A stretch of DNA of 29,168 bases, taken from the NCBI GenBank assembly GCA_050010515.1, contig JBEKKX010000031.1:1-29168 (forward strand), in the 5' to 3' direction. Made by a program: the position numbers and the translations under genes. How positions within the stretch are numbered: the stretch's first letter is position 1; each line of letters opens with the position of its first letter. Source of the DNA: Candidatus Bathyarchaeia archaeon. GTDB lineage: Archaea > Thermoproteota > Bathyarchaeia > Bathyarchaeales > Bathycorpusculaceae. The notes under the pieces were generated by a model. That model worked only from the letters and a program-made list of their open reading frames with translations, did not search any database and was not told the origin of the DNA. Below are positions 6,280 through 28,986 of this stretch, piece by piece.

Positions 6280-6762
6280 ATGAGCAATGAAATGCCAGCC
6301 TTACTTGTATTTCTTGAACAAAAAGACATATCCCTAAAAAGCCTCATTCACTGTGCACTTGAAATGTTTGTGCCTCACCCAGGCGTAGAAACAGAGGAAA
6401 AAGCCGTTGAAATGCTCAGGGAAGAATTTCTCGATGTGTTAGCAGATGTTAATGTTTCCATCCTTGAAGTCGCTGCTTTCCATGCGCAAGAAGATGCAGA
6501 GAAGGGACTTATTCCCGGATTGACGCAAGAAAGGTTCAGAGGTAGACCAGGACCAGTCGCTGACGAAGTTTTAGGAATAGCAATTGCCAGCTACATCGGT
6601 GGAACCAGAGCAGTTTTCGAGTACGTGCGGTTTGACCAAGCTAAACCCGGGATTCTAAAAAAGCTAGGCTCAATCACAAACGACGCTATAGGCGCCTTGG
6701 TTGCAGGTGTATCATCAAACGTTTATACACGCGCCACAAAAAACGCAGAGGCGAAACAATAA
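6280..6762 (+). CDS. cobZ: alpha-ribazole-5'-phosphate phosphatase CobZ (PgpA-like fold)
   Basis: PHPGVET, DVNVS, GLIPGL, ADEVLGIAIASYIGG, FEYVRFDQAKPGIL and DAIGALVAG match archaeal CobZ. cobS/cobY/cobD are nearby. ATG 6280 follows GAGG; alternative starts are 6265 and 6271. Confidence 0.8.
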   Translation: MSNEMPALLVFLEQKDISLKSLIHCALEMFVPHPGVETEEKAVEMLREEFLDVLADVNVSILEVAAFHAQEDAEKGLIPGLTQERFRGRPGPVADEVLGIAIASYIGGTRAVFEYVRFDQAKPGILKKLGSITNDAIGALVAGVSSNVYTRATKNAEAKQ

Positions 6763-6982
6763 AACACTTTTTTATTGATTCTTACAAAAGTCCTAAGGCG
6801 GGTAGGGTATCAATTTTGCTAGTGAATTTCTCTAGCTAAATTGAGGTAGGTGGATAGGTATCCTGTTTGCTTGATAATCTAAGTACCAGAAAGCATACCC
6901 TAAGCCGTTTCTTAACCAGACTTTGTTTTACCATAAGGTTATAATACTATGTTGATTGAGGAGTTTAAGCAGTTGGGCTTCC

Positions 6983-8140
6983 ATGGTTCAAACAAGGCTG
7001 TGCATTGTTACACATACTTTTCTACCTCATATTGGCGGAATAGAAAGGGTTGTTTATGAGCAGAACAAGCGGCTGCTGCACAGAAATTTTGAGCCCACGG
7101 TGGTTACGAACCGTATTGATACACCAAAAAGTTATGTTGTTGACGGCATTAAGGTTGAGTGTTATGGATCGTTGAACACTGGTTTCCGTCTGGGAATACC
7201 CTACTCGATTCCGACAGTAACAAGTCTTGAAACTTTTCTTAAAGCTGTAAAATCAAGTGAAATAGTCCATGCTCATGGTCACCCGTACCTTACGTCGCTT
7301 ATTGCAGCTAAGCTTGCGAAGAGGTACTCTAAACCATTTGTGCTTACGCAGCACAATACCTTCATTGAATATGACAGTGTTTTTGATAGTATTGAACGGT
7401 TAAATGACTTGGCAGTTGGGAAAGAGACGCTAAAAGAAGCAGACAAAATAATCACTGTGAGCAATGCAACCAAGGATTACGTTTTAAGTTTAGGAGCAAA
7501 ACCCGAGAAGATTAAAGTGTTACATAACGGGGTTGACTTGGTTCATTTCAGGCCTTTGACTGGAAAACGAGAAGAAATGAGAAGAAAGCTTGGAATTTCC
7601 CAAAGCTCAATCGTGGTTTTAACCGTTAGAAGGCTTGTTTACAAAAACGGTATTGACACATTAATAGAGGGCGCAAACATAGCAATCAGAAAGAACCCAA
7701 AGATAACTTTTCTAGTGGTTGGAAAAGGACCAGACCTAAACAACGTTCAAATGAGAATACGACAGTTAGGGATAGAAAACAATTTTAGGCTTACAGGCTT
7801 TGTTAAAGATGAAGATTTACCGTTTTACTATAACGCGGCAGACTTCTTTGTGCTACCATCAAAATCAGGAGAAGGCTTGCCTTTGGTTGCGCTCGAAGCC
7901 ATGGCTTGCGGATTGCCAGTAATAGCCACAAACGTTGGAGGAATAAGTGAAATTCTAATGGAAGATTATGGAAAATTAGTGCCATCTAACCAGCCGGAGT
8001 CTCTTGCAAAAGCAATTTTGGAATTTTCTAATATTGATTTTTCTTCACGCAAATCAGAGCTTCGAGCAGTAATGGAAGAAAAGTATAGTTGGGATAAAAA
8101 CGTTGAAACACTCATCGGGATATACGAAGAGCTTATTTAA
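6983..8140 (+). CDS. glycosyltransferase family 4
   Basis: FLPHIGGIE at the N-terminus, HAHGH, and EGLPLVALEAMACGLPVIATNVGG (GT-B EX7E motif). Confidence 0.92.
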   Translation: MVQTRLCIVTHTFLPHIGGIERVVYEQNKRLLHRNFEPTVVTNRIDTPKSYVVDGIKVECYGSLNTGFRLGIPYSIPTVTSLETFLKAVKSSEIVHAHGHPYLTSLIAAKLAKRYSKPFVLTQHNTFIEYDSVFDSIERLNDLAVGKETLKEADKIITVSNATKDYVLSLGAKPEKIKVLHNGVDLVHFRPLTGKREEMRRKLGISQSSIVVLTVRRLVYKNGIDTLIEGANIAIRKNPKITFLVVGKGPDLNNVQMRIRQLGIENNFRLTGFVKDEDLPFYYNAADFFVLPSKSGEGLPLVALEAMACGLPVIATNVGGISEILMEDYGKLVPSNQPESLAKAILEFSNIDFSSRKSELRAVMEEKYSWDKNVETLIGIYEELI

Positions 8141-8170
8141 CCAAACTAATGAAACAATATAGCCTTTACA

Positions 8171-8920
8171 ATGGGAGTTAGCATGACGTCGAAAGTAGAA
8201 CTGGTCTCGGTAGTAATTCCAACACTCAATGAAGCAGGAAACATCTTAGAGGCTGTCACAACCATCGAGAAAGATTTGGCATATCCAAAAGAAATAATCG
8301 TTGTTGACGGCAACTCAACTGATGGAACAATAGAAATCGTTAAAGACACAAGTTTTTGCAAGCTTATTATTGAACCAAGACTCGGGTATGGTACCGCTCT
8401 TAAAACAGGTATGAAAAACGCGAAAGGCAACATTATTGTGATGGTTGACGGCGATGGAACCTACGAGGTAAAACACATCAATCGCTTGCTGGATAGGATG
8501 ATTCAGAAAGACGCTGACATGGTTTTAGCCACTCGCATGTATGACCCAAACAAAGCCATGGGATTCATGAATTTCGTTGGAAACAAAGTGATTACCTTCT
8601 TTTTCGACTTCTTCTACAGCCAATTCCTCAGCGACACACAATCAGGTTTCCGAGCAATATCTCATGAAGCCATCGACAACGTTAAGTTAAACCAGGGAGA
8701 CATGGCTTTCGCTACTGAAATGCTTGTACAATTCGCCAAAGAAGGATACAGCATGATTGAAGTTCCCACCACGTATAAAGCCCGAAAATATGGGAAAACC
8801 AAGCTCAAAAAATTTAAGTCAGGAATTGAAATATTTAGCACTATATTTAGGGGCCTTCTGGATGCCGACATGGTTAGAAAAAATGAAGAATATTGGAAGA
8901 AAAATTGGTTTAAGCGATGA
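8171..8920 (+). CDS. glycosyltransferase family 2 (dolichol/polyprenol-phosphate glycosyltransferase-like)
   Basis: SVVIPTLNE, VVDGNSTDGT, GYG, MVDGDGTY, SDTQSGFRA. Confidence 0.92.
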   Translation: MGVSMTSKVELVSVVIPTLNEAGNILEAVTTIEKDLAYPKEIIVVDGNSTDGTIEIVKDTSFCKLIIEPRLGYGTALKTGMKNAKGNIIVMVDGDGTYEVKHINRLLDRMIQKDADMVLATRMYDPNKAMGFMNFVGNKVITFFFDFFYSQFLSDTQSGFRAISHEAIDNVKLNQGDMAFATEMLVQFAKEGYSMIEVPTTYKARKYGKTKLKKFKSGIEIFSTIFRGLLDADMVRKNEEYWKKNWFKR

Positions 8921-9395
8921 AAAGGGCTACGCTGTCGCCATTTTCCTTGCCTTAGTAATTATTTCTGCACTAGTTGTAGGCTATTATGTGATAGCTAGGC
9001 CGCAACCCGAAGGCTACAGCACAATTTACCTGCTTGATTCACAAAACAAAGCCGTTGATTATCCCGCAGTTTTGGTTGCTAATCAGAACAGCACGTTTAA
9101 CGTGTCTGTAAACGTTGATAATCATATGGGTGGCACTGTGAAATACCAGGTTTTAGTGAAAATCACCAATGACCTTACAACTGTTCCAGTTAATACTCAG
9201 CCCATCGAAGCGTATAATATGACCTTAGGGAATGGTCAAAGCTGGCAAAAGTCAGTCACAGTTACGGAAAATCAAGTTGGAAGCTGCTCGGTGGTTTTTG
9301 AGCTCTGGCAATATAATTCAGATTCAGGAGCTTACCAGTTTACATATAACAATGTAAATAACTATTGCGTCTTAAACATTCAAGTGGTAAGTTAA
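8883..9395 (+). CDS. membrane-anchored protein, DUF1616-like
   Basis: N-terminal TM helix, then EGYSTIYLLDS...AVDYP...V-N...VVFELW, a beta-rich extracellular domain. ATG 8883 is preferred over 8757. Confidence 0.7.
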   Translation: MKNIGRKIGLSDEKGYAVAIFLALVIISALVVGYYVIARPQPEGYSTIYLLDSQNKAVDYPAVLVANQNSTFNVSVNVDNHMGGTVKYQVLVKITNDLTTVPVNTQPIEAYNMTLGNGQSWQKSVTVTENQVGSCSVVFELWQYNSDSGAYQFTYNNVNNYCVLNIQVVS

Positions 9396-10858
9396 GCCGT
9401 CTTGTGCCTTTCAGCGTACTCTTTTTCGATTGCAACCCTATGGATATTGTTGTATGCGCAGAAAGGTATGATCTTCAAGTCTGGCGTAACATAGTGCACT
9501 ACGCATCGTCTTACGCGGTTAACGTCAAAGTTGTATGAATCCATAAACGCCATGCAGCCTAAGAGGAAGATTCTTCTGCGTATCTTGCCAAGCGACTGGT
9601 AAGATGGAGAAAGATGCATCCTCATAATTGCGTTTGTAAGAGTCAACATGCCGACTTCTTTAGTAACTAAATACCAGTTCATCGACTCCATTGATGCTAA
9701 GAAGAGTGTTGAAAGAAGCGAAATCTTGCCCTTAGACTCAGCAGACTCAGCGGTTTTGCGAATGCTTTTAAAAAATCTGTCAAAGTTAACGAAACGGTTG
9801 ATTGGAATCATTTTGCCCTTTTTTGTAACGTAAATCCAATTTACGATGCCGCATTGTGGGCTACATGAGAACAGTGGCCAAGGCTTTTTCATGAACCTGC
9901 GCATTATCTTTATTGGTGAAGTCATCATTGACAGGGGGAAGAAATCAGTAGTCTTTAATTCACCGTGCGTTTGGTTTTCCACGTCCTCTGCAAAAGACCA
10001 CTCTCTAAAGTTCTCTCTAAACGGGTTTTCTGTCGCTCTGCCAGTAAAAGCGATCGGCTGGAAAATTAATCCTCTGATTATGTCAGTGTTTTTTGCAGCA
10101 AACTTGACTATGTCGCCGACTTCTTTATCATTTAAACTCTTCATTAACGTGTTAACGAGGATTATTTCGATGTCGTATTTGCGGCATACCTCAATAGCCT
10201 TCAGTTTATAGTCTAAAAGCGCTTGTCCTCTAACTTTCTTGTAGAAGTCATCGTGGAAACTGTCAAACTGTAAGTAAACAATGTTCAAACCGTTATTTTT
10301 TAGTCTCTCCGCTAACTGTGGGTTCTCAGCCAAATGTATCCCATTGGTCGCAATAATAGTCATAAACTTCAGCTTATGGGCGACCCCGATTATTTCAGGC
10401 ATATCTTCGCGTTCTAGGGGTTCGCCGCCTGAGAACAGGATGGCTGGAGGCTTCGGGTCAGCATTGTTTAGGAATTCCAGCATGTTTATGAGAGCTTGTT
10501 TTGTTGGTTCATAATCAACTTCTTGCTGTGGAAAAGTGGAGAAACAGACAGCACATTTTAAGTTGCACCGTTTGGTTACGTCGATTACTCCTATAACAGT
10601 GCCTGAAGCATGATTAGTACATGATTCGCAGACATATGGGCAGCCTTCAGGGTTTTTCGGGGCGTTTAAGTCGCCAAGGTATTGGAATTGGTCATAAGTT
10701 TGCATGTGATTAAAAACACCCAGGCTTTGCCAGTGAGTAGCTTCGAAAACTCCATGCTCAGGACATTGTTTAGTGATTTTAATTTTGCCATTTACTTCCG
10801 TTAATTCGGCATCAATTTTTTTCTGGCATTCAGGACAGACGCTTTTGGTTTTGGTCAT
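9392..10858 (-). CDS. tes: tetraether lipid synthase (Tes/GDGT-MAS, MJ0619 family)-like radical SAM protein
   Basis: N-terminal SVCPEC...KQCPEHG metal site, [27 protein letters not shown] (CxxxCxxC), SGGEP, YLQFD, and C-terminal [34 protein letters not shown]. Confidence 0.82.
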   Translation of the reverse strand: [488 protein letters not shown]

Positions 10859-11736
10859 AATAACCCTCCAAGTGTTGCCTCGATTATTAATGCTAACGGA
10901 AGAAGAATCATCGACATAGTAACTATTCGCTCATATTTTCGCACATTGGACACTGTTGAAGCTGAGGTTACAAGACGGATTGAACAGTAAATTAGAAGAA
11001 CGCTCCAAAGAAGAATAGGAGGCAAATAGTAAATTGTAAACTTGCCTATGAAGTAGGGAAGAGGCGCAAGCAAACCGGTCAACGTGAAAAACAGGGCAGC
11101 CACTTTCACAGAGTTTACGTTGCCGATTTTTTGCGGAAGCGTTGGATACCCAATCTTTGAGTCGCCGTCAAGGCTTAGGATGTCTCGCAGGACATTGCCG
11201 CCTATAGTGCCGAAAGCTATCGGGTAGAGACTTAAAGAAATCAAGCTTATAGTTGGAGGTATAGTGATGGTGGCTTCTCCATACATGAAGGCTGTACCTG
11301 TTAAAACGCCAACCAAAACGTTGGCAGCAAAGCCTGATTTCCGCTTTACAAGTGTTGAGTAAATCAATAGCAACAAGGAATCGACAGCGATTATTGCGAA
11401 GCTTAGCCAGTTAATAAAAAAAGCCATAATTAGACCTAAAGTAAAAAGTAAAGCTGAGATTGCCACTACTTGCTTTAGCGACAGCGCACCTGAGGGTATG
11501 GGGCGTTTAGGCTTGATTACTGCATCGCTTTCTCTGTCAAAGTAGTCGTTGATTGCGAAGCCTGCGGATGTTATGAACGCCATGGAAAAGAAAATCAGCA
11601 AATCTGTTTGTATGCTGAGGCTAAGAGGGTTTTTGGTGATGGCGAAAGCTGTTAAAAGAGATAAACCACCAGTCATCAGCCAGTAGGGAAGACGCAAAAG
11701 AGCGATTAATCCTCTAGCTGGCACCGCAGCGGCCAT
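10855..11736 (-). CDS. UbiA-family prenyltransferase, digeranylgeranylglyceryl phosphate synthase-like
   Basis: Multi-pass membrane protein with INDYFDRESDAVIKPKRPIPSG and RDILSLDGDSKIGYPTLP Asp-rich motifs. Overlaps the tes-like gene by 4 bp. Confidence 0.85.
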   Translation of the reverse strand: MAAAVPARGLIALLRLPYWLMTGGLSLLTAFAITKNPLSLSIQTDLLIFFSMAFITSAGFAINDYFDRESDAVIKPKRPIPSGALSLKQVVAISALLFTLGLIMAFFINWLSFAIIAVDSLLLLIYSTLVKRKSGFAANVLVGVLTGTAFMYGEATITIPPTISLISLSLYPIAFGTIGGNVLRDILSLDGDSKIGYPTLPQKIGNVNSVKVAALFFTLTGLLAPLPYFIGKFTIYYLPPILLWSVLLIYCSIRLVTSASTVSNVRKYERIVTMSMILLPLALIIEATLGGLL

Positions 11737-12668
11737 TACGAAAGTTTCCTCTCAGCGATAATTTCTCTTATGCTATCTTCAAGACTTACCTTGGGATTCC
11801 ATTTCAACTCTTTCTTTGCTTTGGAGTTGTCAAACCATATTTTTGTTACGTCGCCTTGCCAAGAAACATTAGTTGTTGTTATGAATGTCCTGTCTTGCAA
11901 GTTGAGGATTTTGAGCATCATTTTGGCAAGGTCTATTATCGTGGTTGTTGTTCCAAAGCCTATGTTGTAAGTTTTACCGTTAGCAGAATCATCTGAGCCA
12001 ACGGTTACTAAAGCATCCACCACATCGGAAACATGAACAAAATCGCGTGACTGCAGCCCAGTGCCGATGATTTCTAGTTTGCCGGGGTTTTTAGCGATTT
12101 TATCTATAAAGTCATGGATGACCCCGTGGCACCTTGACCCGTAAACGTTAGCAAACCTCATTATGGTGATGTCTAAGCCGTACTGGCTTTGGTACATTTG
12201 GCAGTATTCTTCGCCGACTACTTTGGATAACCCATAGCATGAAAAGGGGTGAAAACCGTATTCCTCTGGAGTTGGAAATACAGTTGGATTGCCATAGACT
12301 GCTGCGCTGGAAGCGAAAACTAGTTTTGCATCGTCTTTGCGTGCTTTCTCAAGAACTTGGAGTGTTCCTTTAGCGTTCGTTTCAAAATCTTCCAGTGGAT
12401 TCTCCATCGAGTAAGGAACAACAACTTGCGCAGCTAAATGATAAATTAAATCAGCCTTCTCTAAAGAACGAAGCTTTTTCAGGTCCAGTATGTCGCCTTT
12501 GATGAACTTAGCTTTTGGAACGTCTTTCACGTTTTCCTTTTTGCCACTTGATAAGTTATCATAAATCGTTAAGTTAGATGTTAGGTCTGATAGTCTTTTG
12601 CACAGGTGAAAGCCGATAAAACCTGCTCCACCAGTGATTAGAATTTTTTTTCCTTTAAGTTCCACCAT
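11736..12668 (-). CDS. NAD-dependent nucleotide-sugar epimerase/dehydratase (GalE-like SDR)
   Basis: ITGGAGFIG, ASSAAVYG, YGLSK, RFANVYG, RDFVHVSD. ATG at 12668 is preferred over the TTG at 12701. Confidence 0.93.
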   Translation of the reverse strand: MVELKGKKILITGGAGFIGFHLCKRLSDLTSNLTIYDNLSSGKKENVKDVPKAKFIKGDILDLKKLRSLEKADLIYHLAAQVVVPYSMENPLEDFETNAKGTLQVLEKARKDDAKLVFASSAAVYGNPTVFPTPEEYGFHPFSCYGLSKVVGEEYCQMYQSQYGLDITIMRFANVYGSRCHGVIHDFIDKIAKNPGKLEIIGTGLQSRDFVHVSDVVDALVTVGSDDSANGKTYNIGFGTTTTIIDLAKMMLKILNLQDRTFITTTNVSWQGDVTKIWFDNSKAKKELKWNPKVSLEDSIREIIAERKLS

Positions 12669-12716
12669 GTAATTCACGACAAAGTCTATATTATCTTTCA
12701 ATTAGTTGTAGGGTAT

Positions 12717-13547
12717 ATGTCGCCTGTGAAAGCTATAAAAACTTTTAGGGATTTACTGTCATTCCTAACCATTATCCCTGTGGGCGGAAAGGAAGATTTC
12801 ATTTTCACCACAGCCGAGCACATGTACCTTTTCCCCATAATCGGCGCTTTCATAGGCATACTTGCCGGCGCTTACTTCCTCGGCGCAAGCATTATCGTTC
12901 ATTTTCTGCTCAGTTTAGTTAACACAACCGTTGCCTTGCCAACTGACTTACTAGCAAAGCTTGCGGTTGCTGCGATGACCGTGGCTTTCCTGCTTGTCTT
13001 AACGGGACTCCAACATTTTGACGGCTTAATCGATTTAGGCAACGCGTTTGGGCTTAGAAATTTGCATGACCGCAAAATGGTTGCTCACGCCTGGACGGTG
13101 ACTTACTGGGGAGCATTACTTGCGATAATTGTAGAGTTTACCGCTTTCATAGGATTATTTTTAATTAACCCACTTTTTGCTTTTGGAGCAATAATTGCCG
13201 CTGAAGTCTCAGCTAAAATATCTATGGTAACGATTGTTTGGGTAGGAAAACCCACGCACAAAGGGTTAGGTTCAATTTTCCTTCAAAAAGCAAAAAAGAA
13301 ACTCAACATCATCGCTTACGCACTCTCTATACTGATTGTCTACCCATTTTTTGGTTTTACAGATAAACCGTTTTTAGGTTTAGTTGCCGTCGGAGTGGTT
13401 TTAGTCAGCATTCCAGTAGCGCTTGTAATGGAGAAAGTTGCTGAAAGCGTTTTCGGCGGAGTTTCAGGCGACATGATTGGGGCAACCAACGAGGTGGCTA
13501 GGGCAGTTACGCTTATTTTGATTGCAGGTGTATTGGTGCTAATATGA
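12717..13547 (+). CDS. cobS: adenosylcobinamide-GDP ribazoletransferase (cobalamin synthase)
   Basis: SFLTIIP, FPIIG, TGLQHFDGLIDLG and FGGVSGDMIGATNE. Hydrophobic membrane protein. Confidence 0.9.
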   Translation: MSPVKAIKTFRDLLSFLTIIPVGGKEDFIFTTAEHMYLFPIIGAFIGILAGAYFLGASIIVHFLLSLVNTTVALPTDLLAKLAVAAMTVAFLLVLTGLQHFDGLIDLGNAFGLRNLHDRKMVAHAWTVTYWGALLAIIVEFTAFIGLFLINPLFAFGAIIAAEVSAKISMVTIVWVGKPTHKGLGSIFLQKAKKKLNIIAYALSILIVYPFFGFTDKPFLGLVAVGVVLVSIPVALVMEKVAESVFGGVSGDMIGATNEVARAVTLILIAGVLVLI

Positions 13548-14170
13548 AAGTACCTGCGTTGATTATGGCTGGCGGAAAAGGTAAACGCATGGCTTTGCCA
13601 GTGGAAAAGCCGCTTTTAACTTTTTTAGGTAAACCGCTGATTGACTGGGTTGCTGAGGCTGTTGCTTGTGCCGAAAAGGTTTCAGAGTTTTATGTAGTGA
13701 CCAGCTTGAACACGCCTGAAACTGAAAAGCACTGCCTTAGCAAGGGATGGAAGGTTTTGCGGACGGAGGCAAAGGGATATCATGATGACTTAAAGCAAGC
13801 TGCTCTTACAGCTGGTTTAATGGGTCCTGTGCTGACCATTCCAGCGGATTCTCCAGCCGTAACTGGTAAGTTTCTTGATAAAATCATCAAACGGTTCGAA
13901 GTTTGCGGAAAAGATTTCTATGCAGTTTTCGTTCCTATCCAAGTTCGTGAAAACTTGGGACTTTCTGTAGACTCCACTGACGAGTACAAGGGCAAGTGGT
14001 ATGCTGTTTCGGGAGTCAACATTGTTAACGGCGCAAAAATTCAAGGCGAGAGCAAAATTGAAACAAGTGCCCTGATCACAAAAGAGGTTGAAGTACTCCT
14101 TAACATTAATACTTTGAAGGATTTAGAAATCGCCGAGAGAATAATGCATGATAGCAGTTGGAAAAGATGA
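13544..14170 (+). CDS. cobY: GTP:adenosylcobinamide-phosphate guanylyltransferase (MobA-like NTP transferase)
   Basis: ALIMAGGKGKRM..VEKPL, GYHDDL, PAD, SGVNIV, NINTLKDL. Overlaps cobS by 4 bp. Confidence 0.85.
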   Translation: MKVPALIMAGGKGKRMALPVEKPLLTFLGKPLIDWVAEAVACAEKVSEFYVVTSLNTPETEKHCLSKGWKVLRTEAKGYHDDLKQAALTAGLMGPVLTIPADSPAVTGKFLDKIIKRFEVCGKDFYAVFVPIQVRENLGLSVDSTDEYKGKWYAVSGVNIVNGAKIQGESKIETSALITKEVEVLLNINTLKDLEIAERIMHDSSWKR

Positions 14171-14249
14171 GTTTTCCTGTTAGAGAAATCTTTAACATCA
14201 CCACGCAACCTACTCTACCTCAAGTTGCTGTTTCAGGAGACCGTCTCGG

Positions 14250-19533: not shown

Positions 19534-19559
19534 TTTACTTTTAGATGCCAATGGAAGAA

Positions 19560-19568: not shown

Positions 19569-19615
19569 TTTGGCTACCCCAACCTTGTAAGCAATTGAAT
19601 GGATAGTTTGCTTAG

Positions 19616-20170: not shown

Positions 20171-21275
20171 AGAACGCAGGTTTGTTAGTCATGGCGGAGA
20201 CATTTGGGGTTTTATCCGAAAATACAATGTACCACTTGAAGAAGTACTTGAGTTCAGTGGACCTATCAATTTTCTTGGGCCTTCGCCCAAAGCTGTAGAA
20301 GCCGTTAAAAAGTATGCTAAGCTGATCAAGTTTTATCCTGACCCTAACCCAGTGGAGTTTAAAGCGGAAATCGCAAAGTACATTGGGCACGGAGTGAAAG
20401 AGGAAAACGTCATTTTAGGGAACGGCTCCATCGAACTCATCTACGCCATTACCGAGATTCTGCCGCGCGGCTTTAAAGCGCTCATTCCCGTGCCTTCATT
20501 TAGCGAGTATGAGAAGGCAGCACTACGGGTTGGTGGCGAAGTAGCGTTTCTCCAGTTGCCAGAGAACTTTGCTTTAGAAAACGAAAAAATCAAGCGAGCA
20601 ATCACACCTGAAACAAAAATACTCTACATTTGCAATCCTCACAGTCCTTCAGGGACACTGTACAGCAAAGAAGCGGTTTTAGACCTAGTTGATTTCTGCC
20701 ATAAAAAGGACGTCATCTTCAGCGTTGACGAGAACTATATCGAGTTTGCCGAGAAAGGCCAAGAAACCACGTTGGCTGGCATGGTTAAAGAGTATGAGAA
20801 CCTGTTTGTGATAAGGTCGGTTACTAAATTCTACGGCATGGCAGGCATACGTTTAGGCTACGGCACAGCAGCACCGAAACTAGTCGAGAAGCTGGAAAAT
20901 GTCAGGCTCCCGTGGAGCATCAACAGCCTCGCAAGCTGCGCGACGCTTGCAGCATTTAATGACACTGATTTCATTGAAAACACTAAAAGAACAATCGCCA
21001 AAGAAAGAGCACAGCTAGCCAAAAGCCTAAACGAAATCGGAGACTTACACGTTTACCCGTCAGTAACAGACTTTGTGCTTGTGAAAATCCTGAATCGAAA
21101 AATTACGTCCACCAAGCTTAAGGATTTGCTGGCTAAAGAACACATTCTAATCCGTGATTGCTGCACCTTCATGGGCTTGGACGATAGCTACTTCAGAATC
21201 ACAGTCCGTTCAGCAAAAGACAACCAAAAACTCGTGGAAACAATAAAAAAACACTTGAAAAACGCTGAGAACTAA
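20154..21275 (+). CDS. cobD: L-threonine-O-3-phosphate decarboxylase CobD (HisC-like PLP enzyme), apparent CTG start
   Basis: The frame is open 66 codons upstream of the track start and contains SHGGDIW...LEFSGPINFLGPSP...YPDP. Also GNGSIELI, CNPHSPSG, VDENY, RSVTKFYGMAGIRLGY and IRDC. The HGG motif and cob context favour CobD over HisC. Confidence 0.8.
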   Translation: MSDTCKERRFVSHGGDIWGFIRKYNVPLEEVLEFSGPINFLGPSPKAVEAVKKYAKLIKFYPDPNPVEFKAEIAKYIGHGVKEENVILGNGSIELIYAITEILPRGFKALIPVPSFSEYEKAALRVGGEVAFLQLPENFALENEKIKRAITPETKILYICNPHSPSGTLYSKEAVLDLVDFCHKKDVIFSVDENYIEFAEKGQETTLAGMVKEYENLFVIRSVTKFYGMAGIRLGYGTAAPKLVEKLENVRLPWSINSLASCATLAAFNDTDFIENTKRTIAKERAQLAKSLNEIGDLHVYPSVTDFVLVKILNRKITSTKLKDLLAKEHILIRDCCTFMGLDDSYFRITVRSAKDNQKLVETIKKHLKNAEN

Positions 21276-21417: not shown

Positions 21418-22161
21418 ATGAAAGTGGTTGTCCACTGGAGTGGAGGAAAAGATTGCTGTACGGCACTTCACAAAGTGGTAGAGCAGGGTCACGAAATAGC
21501 ATGCCTCGTCACCTACATCTATATGGAACCCTACGTTTTTCACAGTTTCAAAGTAATAGAGTTACAAGCCAAAGCTCTGGGCGTTCCCCACCAGTTTGTG
21601 AAAATAACAGATAACCGATATGACGACATCATGGGAACTCTCGAGCGGTTGCATAAAGAACAGGGCGTTGAAGCCATCGTAACAGGCGACATCGACAACG
21701 TACATCACCGACGGGTATGGAAGGACGCCTGCAAAAAACTAAACGTCAAACTCCTAATGCCCATGTGGGATAGACCACTCAACCTCATTCCAGGCAGCCG
21801 CTACCGAAAACGAATCATGGAAATGGAGCAGTCAATCGGAGTAAAAGCCATCCTCAGCTGCATTGACCAAAGATACTTCACCGAACAATGGCTAGGGCGA
21901 CAAATAGACAGAAAATGCATCGAAGACATGAAACCCCTAGTCGGTCCAGCGGGTAAAGGAATAGACATTTCGGGAGAACCAGGAGAATACCACTCAACAT
22001 CGCTTGATGCACCGCTATTCAAAGAACGCATTGAAATCACCAAGTACACCAAGAGAAGCCGAGTCGTCGATTTTGGCGGTTCACCCTACCGAGAAGGCGA
22101 TTTTCTCTACATGGACATTGAAGAAGCGGTTCTTAAACCCAAAAATCCCAGCATCGCCTAA
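21418..22161 (+). CDS. diphthine-ammonia ligase-like PP-loop ATPase (Dph6/MJ0570 family), paralog 1
   Basis: WSGGKDC, FHS, LQAKALGVP, VTGDI, MPMW, WLGR, GEPGEYHSTSLDAPLF. Confidence 0.85.
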   Translation: MKVVVHWSGGKDCCTALHKVVEQGHEIACLVTYIYMEPYVFHSFKVIELQAKALGVPHQFVKITDNRYDDIMGTLERLHKEQGVEAIVTGDIDNVHHRRVWKDACKKLNVKLLMPMWDRPLNLIPGSRYRKRIMEMEQSIGVKAILSCIDQRYFTEQWLGRQIDRKCIEDMKPLVGPAGKGIDISGEPGEYHSTSLDAPLFKERIEITKYTKRSRVVDFGGSPYREGDFLYMDIEEAVLKPKNPSIA

Positions 22162-22272: not shown

Positions 22273-22569
22273 ATGGTAGAAAAAGAAGTTATTGGTAACC
22301 TGAACGTTGTTTGGCTCTGCGGAGGAACAACTGCAGACATAACTCCAGCGCAACCGTTAAAGTTCAACATGAACGATGCATGCGAAAAAATCAAGAAACA
22401 GCACTTCAAAATCCGCGTGAAGTCCCAGATGGTCTTGATGTTTGATTACATGAAGCTGGATGTAAGCCTGTTTGATGGGGGGCGGATGCTGATAAAAAAC
22501 GTAAGCGACAAGGAAACTCCGCTTAATGCTTACCGGGAAATTCTCAAAACAATCAACATAACCATATAA
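22273..22569 (+). CDS. small protein resembling the C-terminal domain of long ThiF/MoeB proteins
   Basis: WLCGGTTADITP...VSLFDGGRMLIKNV.D..LNAY resembles the LCG...F-DGR-LI pattern. SD-like GGAG upstream. Confidence 0.6.
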   Translation: MVEKEVIGNLNVVWLCGGTTADITPAQPLKFNMNDACEKIKKQHFKIRVKSQMVLMFDYMKLDVSLFDGGRMLIKNVSDKETPLNAYREILKTINITI

Positions 22570-22761: not shown

Positions 22762-24129
22762 TTAGCGGTTAAAAACCAGAGAGACACTTTTTTTAACTGC
22801 GCTTCCCAAGCCTTCCTGCTTAATTACTCGGATAAGCTTAGACGCCGCCGACTTCTGGCAGTTTCGCTGAAAATCCCGCTGAATCTTGACGAGCATATCG
22901 TAATCGAATTCTTTGGTTTTGACTCTTGCCAAATAGTTATCTATCTGATCGTACAAGCCTTGGCTTATCACTTCATCGTACAGTCGGCTACCAGGGCACG
23001 CCACGTAAATGTTGAATTGGCACCAGTCCGCGTTCAGATGCTTTGCAAACTTAAATGTGGCTTTCATGTCGTTAACTGTTTCGCCAGGGATGCCCAGCAT
23101 GAAAGAAGTTGCTGTTCGTATTCCCACTTGCCTGCAAAGCTCAAAGGTACGCTCGACTTCTTGGAGATTGATGTTCTTGTCTAGCTTTTGCTGAATTGCA
23201 GGTGAACCCGATTCTACTCCGAAGAATATGGTTTGGCAGCCAGCGGATTTCATTTCAGCGAGCAATTCTTTGGAGATGAGGTCGGCTCTGGTTTCGCATG
23301 TCCATTTGATGTCTATTTTGCTTTCTCTGATTTGTTGGCAAAGCTCAGATGTGCGTTTTTTGTTTATGGTAAAGTTGTCGCCGACGAAGTAGATTCCCTT
23401 TGAACCATAGTTTTCAACCATGTGCTTTATTTCGTCTATGACTCTTCGGGGCGAGAAGGCTCGACAAGTGGTTCCCCACAATTCCCTAGTTTCACAGTAC
23501 GCGCAACTGTATGGGCAGCCACGAAGTATACTCATGGTATCGACAGGTTTAACACTCAAATAGCTTAGTGTACGGTCGTACATTTGCATCGGCAGCAGAT
23601 GACGCGCCGGAACGGGAACCTGATCCAAATCAGTGATGAATTCAGGCGCATTCTTCACCACCTCGCCGTTAATCCTGCATGCTACCCCTGGGATTTTGGC
23701 AATCACCGCCTTTTCTTCGCCTTTCATGATGCTGGCGACAAGGTTCACCATTGCCTGCTCTCCCTCGCCGATAACCACGTAATCTATCTCTTCGTGATCC
23801 AGCATGGTTTGAGGCATGTACGAAGGATGTGGTCCTCCCACAACTACCCTGCATGATGGGTATGCTTCTTTGACTGCTTTAGCCGTCTCGATGCACCGAG
23901 AATAAGTCAAAGAACTGCAGGTTATGCCCACTATTTCTGGCGCACGCTTTCTCACTTCCAATTTAACTTCTTCAATTGACCGCTCCAGCAGATAGTTGTC
24001 AAGAATTTCTACATGGAAGCCATTCTTTTCTAAAGCTGCAGCAACATAAGCTAACCCCAGTGGAGGAAGCTTTCCCGCCATACCCCAAGGCGATTTCAGG
24101 GGTGGAGCGGTAGTCATTAGTAAAATCAA
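22762..24129 (-). CDS. cobalamin-binding radical SAM protein (class B-like), paralog A
   Basis: PPLGLAYVAAAL, VVGGPHPS, GEGE, RGCPYSCAYC, GVESG, GIPGET, PGS. Start placed at TTG 24129 by alignment with paralog C; the track start (24255) overlaps the upstream gene. Confidence 0.9.
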   Translation of the reverse strand: MILLMTTAPPLKSPWGMAGKLPPLGLAYVAAALEKNGFHVEILDNYLLERSIEEVKLEVRKRAPEIVGITCSSLTYSRCIETAKAVKEAYPSCRVVVGGPHPSYMPQTMLDHEEIDYVVIGEGEQAMVNLVASIMKGEEKAVIAKIPGVACRINGEVVKNAPEFITDLDQVPVPARHLLPMQMYDRTLSYLSVKPVDTMSILRGCPYSCAYCETRELWGTTCRAFSPRRVIDEIKHMVENYGSKGIYFVGDNFTINKKRTSELCQQIRESKIDIKWTCETRADLISKELLAEMKSAGCQTIFFGVESGSPAIQQKLDKNINLQEVERTFELCRQVGIRTATSFMLGIPGETVNDMKATFKFAKHLNADWCQFNIYVACPGSRLYDEVISQGLYDQIDNYLARVKTKEFDYDMLVKIQRDFQRNCQKSAASKLIRVIKQEGLGSAVKKSVSLVFNR

Positions 24130-24173
24130 TGTCTGGCTTTCTCCATGTTCAATGTTTTGTGTTGCCCTCTTTT

Positions 24174-25586
24174 CTACTTCACCAAATTGTTTGCTTTTGC
24201 TATGATTGCCCTCCGAGCATGTGCCAGTATTAGACGCGTTGCGCCTAGACCCCACATTTTTCCTTGCTTAAACATGCCTAACGCGCTGACGAAGTAGGCT
24301 GGGCTGAGGTAGAACTTTTGGAATGCTTGTTCCCGAATTTCTGTCAGCTCCTGCATGCTTAAGTTTGGAATCTCAAAGATCGGCGTCGCCGTGTCGTATT
24401 TGTCAAAGTCAGTTATCTTTAGGGATCCGTTTGCTTTCACCTCGTCGTAGAGGGGTGTTCCAGGGTAAGGTGTGGCTATGTAGAATCCTACATCGTTAGG
24501 GTTAAGTTCCTTAACAAACCGAATTGTTTCCCAAGCGCTCTCTTTTGTTTCGCCGGGAAAACCCAAAATGACGCCTGCAACAGTCATCAACCCTGCTTCT
24601 TTTGCCCACTTGAATGCTCTTCTGGTTTGAGTAAGTGAGAAGCCTTTTCCCATGGAGTTTAATACTTTCTTTGAGCCTGATTCGACGCCGAACCAAACAG
24701 CTATGCAGCCTGCCTCCCTCATTTTTACAAGGAGCTCTTTACTTACCATGTCTACTCGAGTTTCACAGTCCCATTTGATTCTTAGTCCTCTCCGCTGAAT
24801 TTCATCGCATATTTTTGCGGTTCTATCCTGATCCACGGTAAATGCATCGTCATAGAATGTGAACTGGTTTGCATAGTAGTTTTTGTGGAGAAACTCCAGC
24901 TCGTCTACTACATTTTTTGGACTGCGCATGCGGTATCTTCTGCCGAACATTCTGACGGCTGTGCAGAAGTTGCACCAGTACACGCAGCCTCGACTAGTCA
25001 TCACGGGATAAGGTATCGTTCCGTACTTCCTCAAATTCTCCGTATGCTGCCAAAGATGGAGTGCTGGATAAGGCAGACTGTCGAGGTCTTCCAAGAAAGG
25101 TCTATCAGGGTTCTTCACTATTTCTGTGCCCTTCCTGCAAGTAGTGCCTGCAAGGTCATGGAAAGCTTGAGCTTTTTCAACTCTTTGTGCAAGCTCCAGC
25201 ATGGTGTTTTCGCCCTCGCCCCTGACAACAACATCTAAGGAGGGCTCTTCATGCAATGCCTTGTCATCCCAGAAGGTAACATGGGGACCTCCGATTGCAG
25301 TTATGCAGTTTGGCCAAACTTCCTTGCATATTTTTACTATTCGAAGGGCAGACTTGTACGTAAGAGTGGTGGAGGTGACTCCAACTATGTCAGGTTGGAC
25401 TTTACCAATTTCTTCTCTAAACTGTTTGTGAGTGAGTTTTTGCGCTTGACAATCAATCACGTTAACTTCAAAATGATTCGTATACAACACCGCACCTAAG
25501 TACCCGATGCCTAAGGGCATGAAAGGTGGATGCTGATGGGAACCGACAGGGTAGGGTGGATTCACAAGAGTTACGCGAGTTTTCAT
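24174..25586 (-). CDS. cobalamin-binding radical SAM protein (class B-like), paralog B
   Basis: LVNPP, PLGIGYLGA, IGGPHVT, GEGE, TSRGCVYWCNFC, FYDDAFT, GVESG, GFPGET, TPYPGT. Confidence 0.92.
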   Translation of the reverse strand: MKTRVTLVNPPYPVGSHQHPPFMPLGIGYLGAVLYTNHFEVNVIDCQAQKLTHKQFREEIGKVQPDIVGVTSTTLTYKSALRIVKICKEVWPNCITAIGGPHVTFWDDKALHEEPSLDVVVRGEGENTMLELAQRVEKAQAFHDLAGTTCRKGTEIVKNPDRPFLEDLDSLPYPALHLWQHTENLRKYGTIPYPVMTSRGCVYWCNFCTAVRMFGRRYRMRSPKNVVDELEFLHKNYYANQFTFYDDAFTVDQDRTAKICDEIQRRGLRIKWDCETRVDMVSKELLVKMREAGCIAVWFGVESGSKKVLNSMGKGFSLTQTRRAFKWAKEAGLMTVAGVILGFPGETKESAWETIRFVKELNPNDVGFYIATPYPGTPLYDEVKANGSLKITDFDKYDTATPIFEIPNLSMQELTEIREQAFQKFYLSPAYFVSALGMFKQGKMWGLGATRLILAHARRAIIAKANNLVK

Positions 25587-25734: not shown

Positions 25735-26451
25735 TCATTTTGGCGTTTCTTTGGGTTTTAAATATGCTTCTTTGATGTCCATGTATAGCCAATTTCTTTT
25801 CCAGTTCTTCGACTTTTCCTTCTTGGTTTTCTTCTTGAATTTGCCGATTCCGATGGATTCTTTGAAAAGCGGTGCGTCGACAACTGTGGTGTGGTAGCCT
25901 TGTCCGTCTTCGCTGGAAACGTCTATGTCTTTTTCGTCGGCTAACTCTTTTAGTTCTTTGATGGAGGTGCTGTCTATCGCTCGTCCTAACCATTCTTCAC
26001 CAAAGAAATTGGTATTAATACAGTTTAATATTGGTCTTAAGCCGGTCTGAACCACTTCTTTCAACACATCGTAAGTGTCTCCTGAAGGGTTTTCCAAGGG
26101 CATCATGAAAGCCATGCCCAACTGTTTGCACATGCTCTCGTAGTAGCTAGAGTGGACAAGGGCGCATCCTGCTCCGACTATGTCGCCTGTTACGATGCCT
26201 TCGATGCCTTCTTCGTTGTGTAATTTTGTGAGAGCTTTGAGGATGTCCTCGTATGCCTTCTTAATTCTAACCCGCTTCAAGGGAGTCCCCAAAGTTTTGG
26301 ATTGAAGTTCCATAACTGGGAAACTGTGAAAAATGTAGGGTTTCATATATTCAAAGGTGAGAAGATAAGCAACCTGATGACCCTGTTTGATGACTTTGTG
26401 GTAAGCTAAGCCGCATTCTTTGCCCCCACTCCAGTGGACGACAACTTTCAT
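25735..26451 (-). CDS. diphthine-ammonia ligase-like PP-loop ATPase (Dph6/MJ0570 family), paralog 2
   Basis: MKVVVHWSGGKEC, FHS, VTGDI, WLGR, YHTTVVDAPLF. Clearly paralogous to 21418..22161. Confidence 0.83.
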   Translation of the reverse strand: MKVVVHWSGGKECGLAYHKVIKQGHQVAYLLTFEYMKPYIFHSFPVMELQSKTLGTPLKRVRIKKAYEDILKALTKLHNEEGIEGIVTGDIVGAGCALVHSSYYESMCKQLGMAFMMPLENPSGDTYDVLKEVVQTGLRPILNCINTNFFGEEWLGRAIDSTSIKELKELADEKDIDVSSEDGQGYHTTVVDAPLFKESIGIGKFKKKTKKEKSKNWKRNWLYMDIKEAYLKPKETPK

Positions 26452-26793
26452 TTTGAATCCTCTTCATTCTGGAAAGGCATGTGGAAGGGCTATAAACCTT
26501 TTCGTTAACCGCCACTCTTTGCTCAAAACACGCTTCAGAGTTATTCTAGATTATATCCAGTCTCAGCCCGTATTATTGGAAGCTGATTAATTTTGGTCCT
26601 TGCAGCTTTCCCGAAGCCTGAATTTACTTGAAAAACAGCAAAAACAAAAACGAAACCTGCATCGGCATTCTGTGCCGTTAAAGCTATTAACTCCCATATA
26701 ATCAAAGTTTTAATCAAAAACATTCACAGAGAGACAAAACGTGCATGCTCACCAATGGAATAAACAGTTCTGCAAAGAGGAGAAAACTCTCAT

Positions 26794-28170
26794 TTGATTC
26801 TCTTAATGACCACTGCCCCGCCAGAAAACGGTGCATGGTACCTTGGCAAACGGTTGCCTCCAATAGGCTTAATGTACGTTGCCGCCGCACTCGAAAAAGC
26901 AGGTTTCGAGGTGCAAATGCTCGACAACTATCTCATGAAAAAATCAACTGGTGAAATCAAGCAGTTAGTCACAACCCTTAACCCGCAAATTGTGGGCATT
27001 ACATGCGGCTCAGCTACTTACGCTCGCTGCGTAGAGACCGCGAAAGCCATCAAAGAAGCCCTGCCTAACTGCAAAATAGTTGTTGGTGGATGGCACGCTT
27101 CCTATGTGCCTGATAGTTTACTGGCGAACCCAGAAATCGATTATGTGGTTATGGGTGAAGGCGAAAGAGCAATGACACAACTTGCCACATGCATCACAAA
27201 CGGCAATGAGCCTGCTGCCGCAACTATTCCAGGTGTTGCGTGTAGACGCCAAGGAAAAAACATCAAAAACCAGCCGAAATTCATCGAAAACCTCGACGAG
27301 GTTCCTTATCCAGCGAGACACTTATTGCCGCTTGAACTCTACGATAGAACCATAGAGTATTTGAGCGTTAAACCCGCCGATGTCATGAGCATCTCACGTG
27401 GATGCGTGTTCAACTGTGGCTTTTGCGAAACAAGAAAACTCTGGGGAAACATTTGCCGAGCCTTCAGTCCGCAGAGAGTTATCGACGAAATACAAGATTT
27501 AATGACTAAATATGGCACAAAAGGACTTTACTTTATCAACGACAACTTCACTCTCAGAAAAAAAGAAACTATTGAACTATGCAGCCTAATGATAAAAAAC
27601 AAGCTGGATTTAGAATGGGTCTGCGATACACGTGTGGATTTAGTAGATCAAGAACTTTTAGAAAAGATGAGTAAAGCCGGATGCAAAACTATTTGGTTTG
27701 GAGTTGAATCAGGTTCGCAGAAAATTTTACAGCGGATCGGCAGAAACACAACGCTAGAGCAGATAGAAAGCGCCTTCAAACTTTGCCGCAAAAACAGAAT
27801 ACAAATTGCATGCTCATTCATGCTCGGTGTCCCAGATGAAACGTTAAGGGACATGGAAGCCTCGTTAAAATTCGCTAAAAAATTAAATCCTGACTGGTGT
27901 CTATTCAACATTTTCATTGCTAATCCAGACAGCAAACTTTACCAGGAAGTTTTGGAATCGAAAAATTACGTTCGCCTTGACGAGTTTTTGCTCAGCGTAA
28001 AGACCGAGGAATTTGATTACAACTCGCTTATGGCTATTCAAAGAAGATTTTTCCAGGAATTTCATAGGTCACCGAAGCAGATAATGAAGAGAATTAGGCG
28101 TGAAGGCGTTGTGAACTTTGCAAAAAGAAGATTGAATCCCAGCGCACAAAAAACCGTAGGAATTGCTTGA
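26794..28170 (+). CDS. cobalamin-binding radical SAM protein (class B-like), paralog C
   Basis: PPIGLMYVAAAL, VVGGWHAS, GEGE, SRGCVFNCGFC, GVESG. Co-linear with paralog A (e.g. PARHLLP..YDRT..YLSVKP.D.MSI). Confidence 0.9.
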   Translation: MILLMTTAPPENGAWYLGKRLPPIGLMYVAAALEKAGFEVQMLDNYLMKKSTGEIKQLVTTLNPQIVGITCGSATYARCVETAKAIKEALPNCKIVVGGWHASYVPDSLLANPEIDYVVMGEGERAMTQLATCITNGNEPAAATIPGVACRRQGKNIKNQPKFIENLDEVPYPARHLLPLELYDRTIEYLSVKPADVMSISRGCVFNCGFCETRKLWGNICRAFSPQRVIDEIQDLMTKYGTKGLYFINDNFTLRKKETIELCSLMIKNKLDLEWVCDTRVDLVDQELLEKMSKAGCKTIWFGVESGSQKILQRIGRNTTLEQIESAFKLCRKNRIQIACSFMLGVPDETLRDMEASLKFAKKLNPDWCLFNIFIANPDSKLYQEVLESKNYVRLDEFLLSVKTEEFDYNSLMAIQRRFFQEFHRSPKQIMKRIRREGVVNFAKRRLNPSAQKTVGIA

Positions 28171-28986
28171 TTATTTTTTAGCTGTCCAAAAGCTCATTTC
28201 AGGTCTGCAAAAGAGACGATAAATTAGGGATAGAGGGTTAGGAATCCATGTGCTGTTTTGATAATAGTCCGTGCGCTTTGAGAACTCATAGTTTTCTTTT
28301 TTGAATATTTGTTCTATGCTTTTGTGGTTTAGTGCGTGTTCTTTTTTGTGCCAGTAATCCGACAGGGAATAATCGATTGAGGGAACTTTTAGTCCGATAA
28401 TTTGGAAGTAAAAGCTGTTAAATATGGGGTTTGAATGAAAATAGATGCCTTTGATGAGGTTGGCTAAGCTGCTTGGTTCAGTTTTCCAATAGAAGGGGGA
28501 TGCTTCGTGGTCAATGTAGATTACGCCGCCTTTCTTTAGAAGGACTGAGAGGCTTTTGAGTGCGGTGACGTAATCAGGTAGGTGGTGAAGCACAGAGTAG
28601 CAGGTTATTAAGTCAAATTCGCCAACGTTAAAGGTTAGATTTTCTATTGGTGAGTTGATTATAGTTAATTTACTATTTTTCAAGTAAAAGTTGTATTTGG
28701 TTTGAAGGATTGCGCACATTTCTGCTGAGATGTCTACTGCTGTAACTTTATAGCCCATCTGCAAAAGTTTGCCTGTTAAGTTGCCGGTGCCTGCTCCAAC
28801 GTCAAGAGCGTTTTTTTGGTTATCTGTCACAAGTTTGTTCATAATGTCTAGTTTTGCAGTTATTCTTTTTTGCTCTTGTTTACTGTATACTTCTGGATGG
28901 AGCAGCTCATAGTATCGTGCTTCATGCTGGTGGACGGAAATGTTTGCTTGGTGAATTTTTTCTTTAAGCGTTTGATCTTGTTGCAA
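28171..28986 (-). CDS. class I SAM-dependent methyltransferase
   Basis: ALDVGAGTG, AVDISAEM, FDLITCYSVLHHLPD, LKKGG. TTG start with GAGGAG SD. Confidence 0.9.
   Translation of the reverse strand: MQQDQTLKEKIHQANISVHQHEARYYELLHPEVYSKQEQKRITAKLDIMNKLVTDNQKNALDVGAGTGNLTGKLLQMGYKVTAVDISAEMCAILQTKYNFYLKNSKLTIINSPIENLTFNVGEFDLITCYSVLHHLPDYVTALKSLSVLLKKGGVIYIDHEASPFYWKTEPSSLANLIKGIYFHSNPIFNSFYFQIIGLKVPSIDYSLSDYWHKKEHALNHKSIEQIFKKENYEFSKRTDYYQNSTWIPNPLSLIYRLFCRPEMSFWTAKK

Follow-up and report, generated by a model that had tools for sequence, protein, structure and literature searches.

What would an archaeon gain from a second tetraether synthase encoded beside a second diether-forming prenyltransferase, among genes for sugar transfer and cobamide assembly? 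The question is raised by contig C31 of a Candidatus Bathyarchaeia archaeon (genome G000; 2.38 Mb, 98.5% complete), the whole of which (29168 bp) is the window analyzed here. DGGGPS is the diether-forming prenyltransferase and Tes the tail-joining radical S-adenosylmethionine (rSAM) enzyme, and the window encodes a relative of each, UbiA2 and Tes2, in one operon with Epim, an extended short-chain dehydrogenase/reductase (SDR) of the nucleotide-sugar epimerase/dehydratase type. The original prediction, made from the DNA alone, had described a locus resembling a biosynthetic gene cluster for a specialised membrane lipid. Using Pfam and NCBIfam profile scans with curated cut-offs, we found all of the gene classes that it listed at 6265-28986, including the claimed five glycosyltransferases (GTs), and comparison with relatives bore out a real, conserved cluster. 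We put at about even the chance that this is a lineage-restricted, Bathy-6-type cluster whose core, Epim-UbiA2-Tes2, makes a dedicated ether lipid and lies within an island of cobamide and B12-binding rSAM (B12-rSAM) genes. The families of the genes, their status as paralogues, their coupling in operons, and how far they are conserved and distributed are shown directly; what the enzymes act on, what they make and whether the lipid genes depend on B12 enzymes are inferences.

Tes2 exceeds the curated cut-off of the Tes model NF045702 (Table 1). Its best solved match is the Methanocaldococcus jannaschii Tes, GDGT-MAS (7TOL/7TOM), to which it aligns over its full length (residues 3-482 on residues 24-505 of 7TOL, 375 bits). 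The two also agree in domain order, an N-terminal zinc ribbon (PF23545, 59 bits) followed by the radical SAM core, and in their cysteines, since Tes2 retains the CxxxCxxC motif plus N- and C-terminal Cys motifs; CNLKCAVC, CPYVCESC and the Cys residues at the C-terminus align with 7TOL. Unlike GDGT-MAS, however, Tes2 is a second copy in its genome, has a DGGGPS paralogue and an SDR as operon partners, and belongs to a separate clade on a long stem. The stronger copy, Tes1 on contig C7, scores 669.5-669.9 bits on NF045702 and is 39% identical to Tes2. Only one other full-length cluster (46% identity, 485 bits) lies near Tes2 in a set of 1.84 billion representatives of 50%-identity clusters; the match after it scores 323 bits, with identity no higher than 39%. 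In a FastTree phylogeny of 113 rows, Tes2 and the 46%-identical cluster form a clade with 100% support and a stem of 0.67; the tree sets this clade apart from Tes1 but within the wider Tes radiation, without fixing its exact branch point. The best 120 matches of a homologous-protein search with Tes2 were all at least 70% identical to it. Judged by these features, Tes2 is a putative enzyme joining archaeol-type tail ends into a glycerol dialkyl glycerol tetraether (GDGT) or macrocyclic archaeol.

The top solved match of UbiA2 is M. jannaschii DGGGPS (6M31, 119 bits), followed by chlorophyll synthase (52 bits). UbiA2 resembles 6M31 in its Asp-rich motifs (NDYFDRESD aligns with NDIFDIEID) and in six transmembrane (TM)-like segments; it differs in falling below the curated DGGGPS cut-offs and in scoring more weakly than the genome's other copy, DGGGPS1 on C13 (171.7 vs. 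233.1 bits on PRK12884, the latter also short of the cut-off of 269), to which it is 32% identical. Based on these solved matches and on scores weaker than those of Tes1 and DGGGPS1, the Tes-like and DGGGPS-like identities originally assigned are upheld, and each protein is the diverged member of its pair. The stronger-scoring Tes1 and DGGGPS1 are probably the housekeeping copies, and the presence of Tes2 and UbiA2 in addition to them therefore fits a specialised product. GGGPS and the CDP-archaeol synthase CarS are single-copy in this genome. Epim, the first gene of the operon, scores 178 bits as GalE and 155 bits as dTDP-glucose dehydratase, in each case short of cut-off; it overlaps UbiA2 by 1 base, and 4 bases are common to the stop of UbiA2 and the start of Tes2. 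CobS2-CobY2, a pair of cobamide genes, runs divergently from Epim.

Synteny across relatives, which had been proposed as a check, was examined with tblastn, in which all window proteins were set against 80 related loci; 51 of these loci have both 10-kb flanks, and an orthologue was counted at ≥45% identity and ≥50% coverage. The core, Epim-UbiA2-Tes2 facing CobS2-CobY2, was found in 51/51 fully flanked loci, with orthologues of UbiA2, Epim and CobS2 each present in all 51 and of CobY2 in 46. Across the full set, UbiA2 adjoins Tes2 in 79/80 loci, Epim was found in 78/80, and a CobY less than 45% identical to CobY2 stands beside CobS2 in 15/80. The other genes were less constant in the fully flanked loci: GT4a and GT2a had orthologues in 41/51 each, SPASM and DUF362 in 40/51 each, GT4b in 38, DUF1616 and GT2b in 35 each, CobZ in 33, GT2c in 30, orf184 in 24, and CobD2, which sits at the flank edge, in 14. 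Since the core is kept in every fully flanked locus, the grouping is more than chance. The CobY-CobS and Epim-UbiA2-Tes2 string stays intact while other modules shuffle between lineages: the SPASM-GT block lies on either side of Tes2, CobD2 is sometimes beside CobY2, and orf184-CobD2 follows the GT block in relatives. The modules remain linked across at least four arrangements, among them a co-directional form in a genome of another family (G040), where the cluster proteins are 40-57% identical to those of the window. There, GT4a-DUF1616-Epim-UbiA2-Tes2 and CobS-CobY run in the same direction, accompanied by CobD, three GTs, SPASM, a methyltransferase and two B12-rSAMs.

Distribution was assessed in 251 evenly drawn Bathyarchaeia genomes, G000 among them, with a Tes2-type gene defined by E ≤1e-125. 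Such a gene occurred in 31/251 genomes, from two families only. The genome's own family had it in 24/33 genomes across five genera, and one other family in 6/10 genomes of a single genus at 46-47% identity; in the remaining families of the draw it was found in 0/207 genomes. CobS2-type and Tes2-type genes co-occur in the same lineages (genus g1 and G040), and among 15 other genomes of the order, 13 gave no CobS match and one a match of canonical type only.

How these genes could cooperate can be set out as a series of steps. UbiA2 would supply a dedicated diether pool, with an acceptor or chain different from that of the housekeeping enzyme, and Tes2 would join the chain ends to give a membrane-spanning or macrocyclic core. 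The SDR may be the source of a modified nucleotide sugar, and the GT4 and GT2 enzymes, two of the latter resembling polyprenyl-phosphate-hexose synthases, would glycosylate the core into a specialised glycolipid or lipoglycan anchor. The SPASM-DUF362 pair, the variable B12-rSAMs and the methyltransferase are possible agents of further tailoring. CobS2, CobY2, CobD2 and CobZ, with a second CbiB (CbiB2) nearby, could form a second nucleotide-loop line serving the B12 enzymes of the island. From the gene content, a specialised glycosylated ether lipid is plausible as the product. A bolder version, in which Epim-UbiA2-Tes2 would make a new class of membrane-spanning ether lipid (with a non-glycerol or modified backbone, or odd chains) carried as a glycosylated, lipoglycan-like anchor peculiar to the Bathy-6 archaea of soil and peat, while a variant cobamide from the embedded second line feeds lipid-tailoring B12-rSAMs, seems to us improbable; if true, the lipid pathway and the cofactor pathway would have co-evolved as one unit.

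The SPASM enzyme is co-directional with CobS2-CobY2 and DUF362 (gaps of 79 and 2 bases). It has 474 residues, beginning with a conserved helical extension of 117 residues (14250-14600) in which Cys30, 33, 53 and 56 (CxxC...CxxC) are invariant in 26/26 aligned sequences; this suggests an extra metal site beyond the RS cluster and the two SPASM clusters. An AlphaFold2 (AF2) model reached a mean predicted local distance difference test (pLDDT) score of 69.2, with residues 1-105 folded as about seven helices (block means mostly 74-92, and 57 for the first ten residues). Foldseek matched the model to SkfB, SuiB, BlsE and PqqE and placed GDGT-MAS at rank 23 over the shared RS core, so that this comparison is non-discriminating; ESM Atlas yielded nothing more specific than clusters named "radical SAM/SPASM" and "B12-binding radical SAM". 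According to the available part of PMC11186832, Gms, the tail-cross-linking enzyme, exceeds 420 residues and has a helical domain at its N-terminus, ahead of RS and SPASM domains; published similarity criteria for Gms are E <1e-50 and identity >30%. The window enzyme resembles this layout by description only, and its SPASM part is poorly modelled by AF2.

Several observations weigh against a dedicated lipid. The margin by which Tes2 passes its cut-off is narrow, and in 4/24 genomes of the same genus (G002, G004, G016, G022) Tes2 reads in two or three overlapping pieces, which could be assembly frameshifts or genuine decay. UbiA2 stays under every curated DGGGPS cut-off (PRK12884, 171.7/269; PRK12882, 167.2/296; PRK12883, 108.7/353). 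CobY2, CobD2 and CobZ all fall below theirs. AglJ and dolichyl-phosphate-hexose-synthase-type enzymes charge polyprenyl phosphates for extracellular glycosylation and act in protein glycosylation; because GT2a and GT2c are AglJ-like, the sugar genes may serve surface glycans and not the lipid. The closest curated families of the SPASM enzyme are tetrapyrrole-modifying rSAMs, all below cut-off (AhbD 304.9 and NirJ2 292.6 bits; cut-off 500). Pairing of a B12-binding with a radical SAM domain is common to hundreds of non-lipid families, and the three B12-rSAMs of the window lie under all curated NCBIfam cut-offs (best BchE, 207-253 vs. 481). An assignment of the SPASM enzyme to Gms, or of the B12-rSAMs to Grs, Gmm or Cds, thus finds no support in these scores. 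Since the carriers all belong to two families of one order, the synteny is in part shared descent. In the closest complete relative (G003), cobamide genes, B12-rSAMs and PQQ-domain proteins surround the locus, a setting that simple co-location would give as well. Finally, no lipid has so far been assigned to Bathy-6, and we found no expression data, no listed RNA dataset covering 9300-14200.

These points bear most directly on the main rival, in which unrelated modules have come to lie adjacent: envelope glycosylation (GT4, GT2, SDR, DUF1616), duplicated cobamide salvage and assembly, and B12-rSAMs for other metabolism such as lignin-derived substrates, all held in one island by descent, with Tes2 and UbiA2 the sole lipid genes and independent of the rest. 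We regard this as unlikely, though a serious contender. The flanks of the locus in G003 (about 86-91% nucleotide identity) favor it. Beyond the methyltransferase end lies, after 3.3 kb, sequence matching the end of contig C11, with a siroheme-decarboxylase-like regulator, B12-rSAMs, CbiB2, an amidohydrolase and PQQ-domain proteins; beyond the CobZ end lies, after 6.3 kb, the canonical Dph6-like-CobT-CobS1-CobY1 operon with an ECF transporter. From both flanks, the lipid/GT cluster is embedded in a large cobamide and B12-rSAM island, and in G000 the island would be contiguous to judge from G003 synteny. According to the accessible portion of PMC11697101, Bathy-6 genomes carry 7-20 B12-rSAMs each, for which a role in lignin metabolism with PQQ-domain proteins is proposed and lipids are not discussed in that portion. 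In addition, 20-kb stretches past the core were fetched for 14 genomes, one of which ended at a contig end; a B12-rSAM homologue was present in 9/13 of the remainder and missing from G001, G008, G010 and G024, so that the B12-rSAM edge is associated with the core but variable. The AglJ-like character of GT2a and GT2c also fits separate envelope glycosylation. On the other side, although their order changes from lineage to lineage, the modules remain no farther than about 20 kb from Tes2; Epim shares translational coupling with UbiA2 and Tes2; and the phyletic pattern common to CobS2-type and Tes2-type genes speaks against mere co-location. All of this evidence is limited to two families of one order.

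The original prediction had given the cluster its own cobamide-finishing genes. Such genes are indeed embedded in the cluster across relatives; they are not the sole set, as better-scoring sets lie on C50 and C16. On C50, a Dph6-like-CobT-CobS1-CobY1 operon encodes CobT (395 bits) and CobS1 (156.3 bits), and the CobD1 of a CobD1-CbiB1 pair on C16 scores 309 bits, over its cut-off of 290.55. The window copies are 32-44% identical to this first set. CobS2 is over the TIGR00317 cut-off (113.2 vs. 110). CobY2 is short of both of its models (TIGR00454, 118.1/174.7; NF045495, 96.2/250), as is CobY1 (145 and 124), and CobD2, with its N-terminus read through, is short of 290.55 (279.4 bits on TIGR01140). 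CobZ is single-copy, no second one being found in the genome by tblastn, and so is CobT; in many relatives CobZ faces the canonical Dph6-like-CobT-CobS1-CobY1 operon. Because CobS2, CobY2 and CobD2 are joined by CbiB2 and CbiZ among the B12-rSAMs of C11, the genome has a full second nucleotide-loop set. The four window proteins best-match families of archaeal nucleotide-loop assembly and salvage (CbiZ, CbiB, CobD, CobY, CobS, CobZ, CobT), and they depart from that known pathway in being diverged, in lying amid lipid and GT genes, and in that three of the four are below cut-offs. No CobQ or CobB equivalog over cut-off was found in the genome, which has a PRK06278-type a,c-diamide synthase, early tetrapyrrole genes and only three TP_methylase matches; de novo corrin synthesis is not evident from these CobQ/CobB and TP_methylase results.

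A further alternative assigns the right-hand genes to the cofactor itself: the B12-rSAM/methyltransferase edge, CobD2 and the Dph6-like ATPases would tailor a cobamide, by lower-ligand methylation of the BzaC/D/E type or through a variant linker, and not a lipid. In several relatives the edge genes are directly beside CobD2, on C11 CbiB2 lies in an operon between two B12-rSAMs, the three extra Dph6-like paralogues of the genome all stand beside cob genes with the real Dph6 elsewhere, and BzaCDE homologues, one of them at a B12 locus, are reported for Bathy-6 in the accessible text of PMC11697101. However, the BzaD model TIGR04385 gave only 138.7, 128.8 and 138.5 bits on the three B12-rSAMs against a cut-off of 450, below the BchE or HpnJ models, and we think this alternative improbable. 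Each of the three carries PF02310 and PF04055, and their PDB matches are AprD4 and TokK-type enzymes. B12a and B12c are duplicates (54% identical), C11 carries copies that share 63% and 58% identity with B12b, and the genome has about ten B12-rSAM homologues in all.

The Dph6-family PP-loop ATPases of the genome number four: Dph6a, Dph6b, one on C50 (L105:12112-12789) and one on C26 (L131:1053-1733). The C26 protein alone passes the diphthine-ammonia ligase cut-off (289.6 vs. 197.3); the others score 120, 101 and 143 bits, and each adjoins cob genes or B12-rSAMs. A Dph6-like gene directly precedes CobT-CobS1-CobY1 here and in G003, G008 and G014. The cob-linked ATPases may carry out an ATP-dependent amidation or ligation in cobamide metabolism that has so far gone unrecognised.

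Could Tes2 and UbiA2 simply be condition-specific isozymes of the same GDGT/archaeol core, giving regulated extra capacity and no new structure? Both keep the catalytic motifs of their families, and NCBI's pipeline annotates Tes2 as Tes in several close relatives. Against this stand identities of merely 39% and 32% to the stronger copies, the long, well-supported stem of Tes2, and an operon that also includes an SDR, in contrast to Tes1 and DGGGPS1, each of which is on a contig of its own. We consider such isozymes quite improbable.

Recruitment of CobY2 and CobS2 to lipid head groups, with a GTP-activated phospho-alcohol and phosphodiester transfer to the Tes2 product, is very improbable. CobS is a polytopic membrane phosphotransferase, and CobS2 has eight TM-like segments; the CobS2/CobY2 position is always beside Epim-UbiA2-Tes2, and their scores lie at or under the family cut-offs, all of which would suit such a role. 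However, the two CobY types have traded places in G008, where the last gene after CobT-CobS1 is of the CobY2 type (67% identity with CobY2) and the gene adjoining CobS2 is CobY1-type (74% identical to CobY1; Table 1). Because of this swap, CobY1 and CobY2 types appear to be interchangeable partners, which fits real cobamide enzymes and goes against recruitment. Consistent with this, the one CobY found in G040 at the search sensitivity adjoins the CobS2-type gene, the CobY1 gene of G014 contains stop codons, and CobD2 with CbiB2 completes a second loop-assembly set. The cob paralogues look like genuine cobamide enzymes and not lipid enzymes. A prenylated corrinoid product, suggested by the chlorophyll synthases that are the next-best matches of UbiA2, was rejected, as nothing else favors it. 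Methylation of glycerol by the B12-rSAMs to give butanetriol dibiphytanyl glycerol tetraethers (BDGTs) was also set aside: in the accessible text of PMC12694404, BDGTs are a marker of Bathy-8 (genus Baizosediminiarchaeum), and in the 251-genome draw Tes2 was confined to two families.

The nearest published counterparts of the Epim-UbiA2-Tes2 locus as a cluster are the gms-grs-gmm cluster of Thermococcus guaymasensis (PMC11214058) and the ted-grs-hgs cluster of Ca. Bathyarchaeota B1_G15 (bioRxiv 10.1101/2025.10.20.683597). As far as the accessible parts of these two sources go, both clusters combine rSAM/SPASM with B12-rSAM genes whose action on tetraethers is either proposed or demonstrated, gene types also present here; as described there, they have no Tes or DGGGPS paralogue, GTs or cobamide genes, and the window locus has all of these. 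In the light of the same partial texts, the statement in the original prediction that archaeal lipid genes are usually scattered is partly true, and these clusters qualify it. Our literature search, which did not cover supplements, turned up no account of an operon pairing Tes and DGGGPS paralogues, nor of this cluster. The cluster is real, conserved and undescribed as such, lipid-modification clusters in general being already known. Bathy-6 is dominant in many soils, peats and paddy fields, and its membrane lipids are unknown, according to the available portions of PMC12694404 and PMC11868695. The Tes paralogue, the DGGGPS paralogue and the SDR offer three concrete genes for expression in the hosts used for Tes, Gms and Ted. 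Should they prove to make a novel tetraether variant, it would be a biomarker for Bathy-6 and would show functional diversification of the Tes family. The duplicated loop-assembly set and the cob-linked Dph6-like ATPases are leads on how a cell with about ten B12-rSAMs manages its cofactor.

The positions of the window genes are given in Table 1. On the plus strand the operons are GT4a-GT2a-DUF1616, CobS2-CobY2-SPASM-DUF362 and orf184-CobD2-Dph6a-orf98; on the minus strand they are Epim-UbiA2-Tes2, GT2c-GT2b-GT4b (spacing 5 and -8 bases) and Dph6b-B12b-B12a. Junctions of -4, -4, -1, -4, 2, -4, -8 and 5 bases agree with the earlier description of mostly overlapping operons. Because the window is an entire contig, the cluster may extend beyond 28986.

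Table 1. Genes of the cluster in the window, with the profile matches obtained for them, and the exchanged CobY genes of G008
Feature	Position	Strand	Profile evidence
CobZ-like (PgpA-fold alpha-ribazole phosphatase)	6265-6762	+	TIGR03161 119 bits, cut-off 152.5
GT4a	6956-8140	+	Pfam
GT2a, AglJ / dolichyl-phosphate-hexose-synthase-like	8171-8920	+	Pfam; TIGR04182 159.6 bits, cut-off 325
DUF1616 membrane protein	8757-9395	+	Pfam
Tes2, Tes-like rSAM	9392-10858	-	NF045702 470.8 bits, cut-off 450
UbiA2, DGGGPS-like UbiA	10855-11736	-	PRK12884 171.7 bits, PRK12882 167.2 bits
Epim, extended-SDR nucleotide-sugar epimerase/dehydratase	11736-12701	-	PF01370 197 bits
CobS2 (CobS-like)	12717-13547	+	TIGR00317 113.2 bits, cut-off 110
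CobY2 (CobY-like)	13544-14170	+	TIGR00454 118.1 bits, cut-off 174.7
rSAM/SPASM enzyme	14250-15674	+	Pfam
DUF362 protein	15677-16642	+	Pfam
GT4b	16639-17832	-	Pfam
GT2b, four TM-like segments	17825-18829	-	Pfam
GT2c, AglJ-like	18835-19551	-	Pfam, NCBIfam
orf184, membrane open reading frame, three TM-like segments	19616-20170	+	
CobD2 (CobD-like)	20352-21275, frame open from 20139	+	TIGR01140 279.4 bits
Dph6a, Dph6-like PP-loop ATPase	21418-22161	+	
orf98	22273-22569	+	
B12a, B12-binding rSAM	22762-24255	-	PF02310 + PF04055
B12b, B12-binding rSAM	24174-25586	-	PF02310 + PF04055
Dph6b, Dph6-like PP-loop ATPase	25735-26451	-	
B12c, B12-binding rSAM	26794-28170	+	PF02310 + PF04055
Class-I methyltransferase	28171-28986	-	
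Swapped CobY genes of G008	L128:5826-6440 and L114 about 16666-17265		

Some details of individual genes deserve mention. The CobD2 frame encodes the conserved N-terminal HGGD region from its upstream part, in which, before 20352, there is no ATG, GTG or TTG and only CTG, ATT and ATC occur as possible starts; CobD2 either begins at a rare codon or is 5'-truncated. The corresponding stop-to-stop frames of relatives are 370-390 residues long. The open reading frames (ORFs) of GT2a and DUF1616 overlap by 164 bases (8757-8920), and the latter matches only the C-terminal half of its family model (profile positions 151-286 of 307); probably the true start of DUF1616 is later, or the two genes were formerly arranged otherwise. 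DUF1616 is also the least conserved gene of the cluster (29-86% identity). Scans of the window gave no tRNA and no Rfam family, and a promoter scan with a bacterial-type consensus was uninformative (29 promoter-like sites vs. 25.3 ± 4.7 in shuffles).

At the contig ends, G003 synteny (L136) suggests that C31 (end at about 29013-29168) and C11 (end at about 65875-66260) abut, with about 3.3 kb of PQQ-domain-like repeats between them. Besides CbiB2 and CbiZ, C11 carries five more B12-rSAMs, two SPASM rSAMs, large PQQ/beta-propeller proteins and an NirDL/AhbAB-like regulator. The left flank of the window (1-6114) is genome-specific, its genes having orthologues in 0-1 of the 80 related loci. It encodes a 317-residue ORF without a family match, a C39-like cysteine peptidase, a CxxCxxCC protein, an LSM protein that recurs on C18 at 86% identity, and a truncated GT4 (401-1288), which is a sixth GT outside the cluster.

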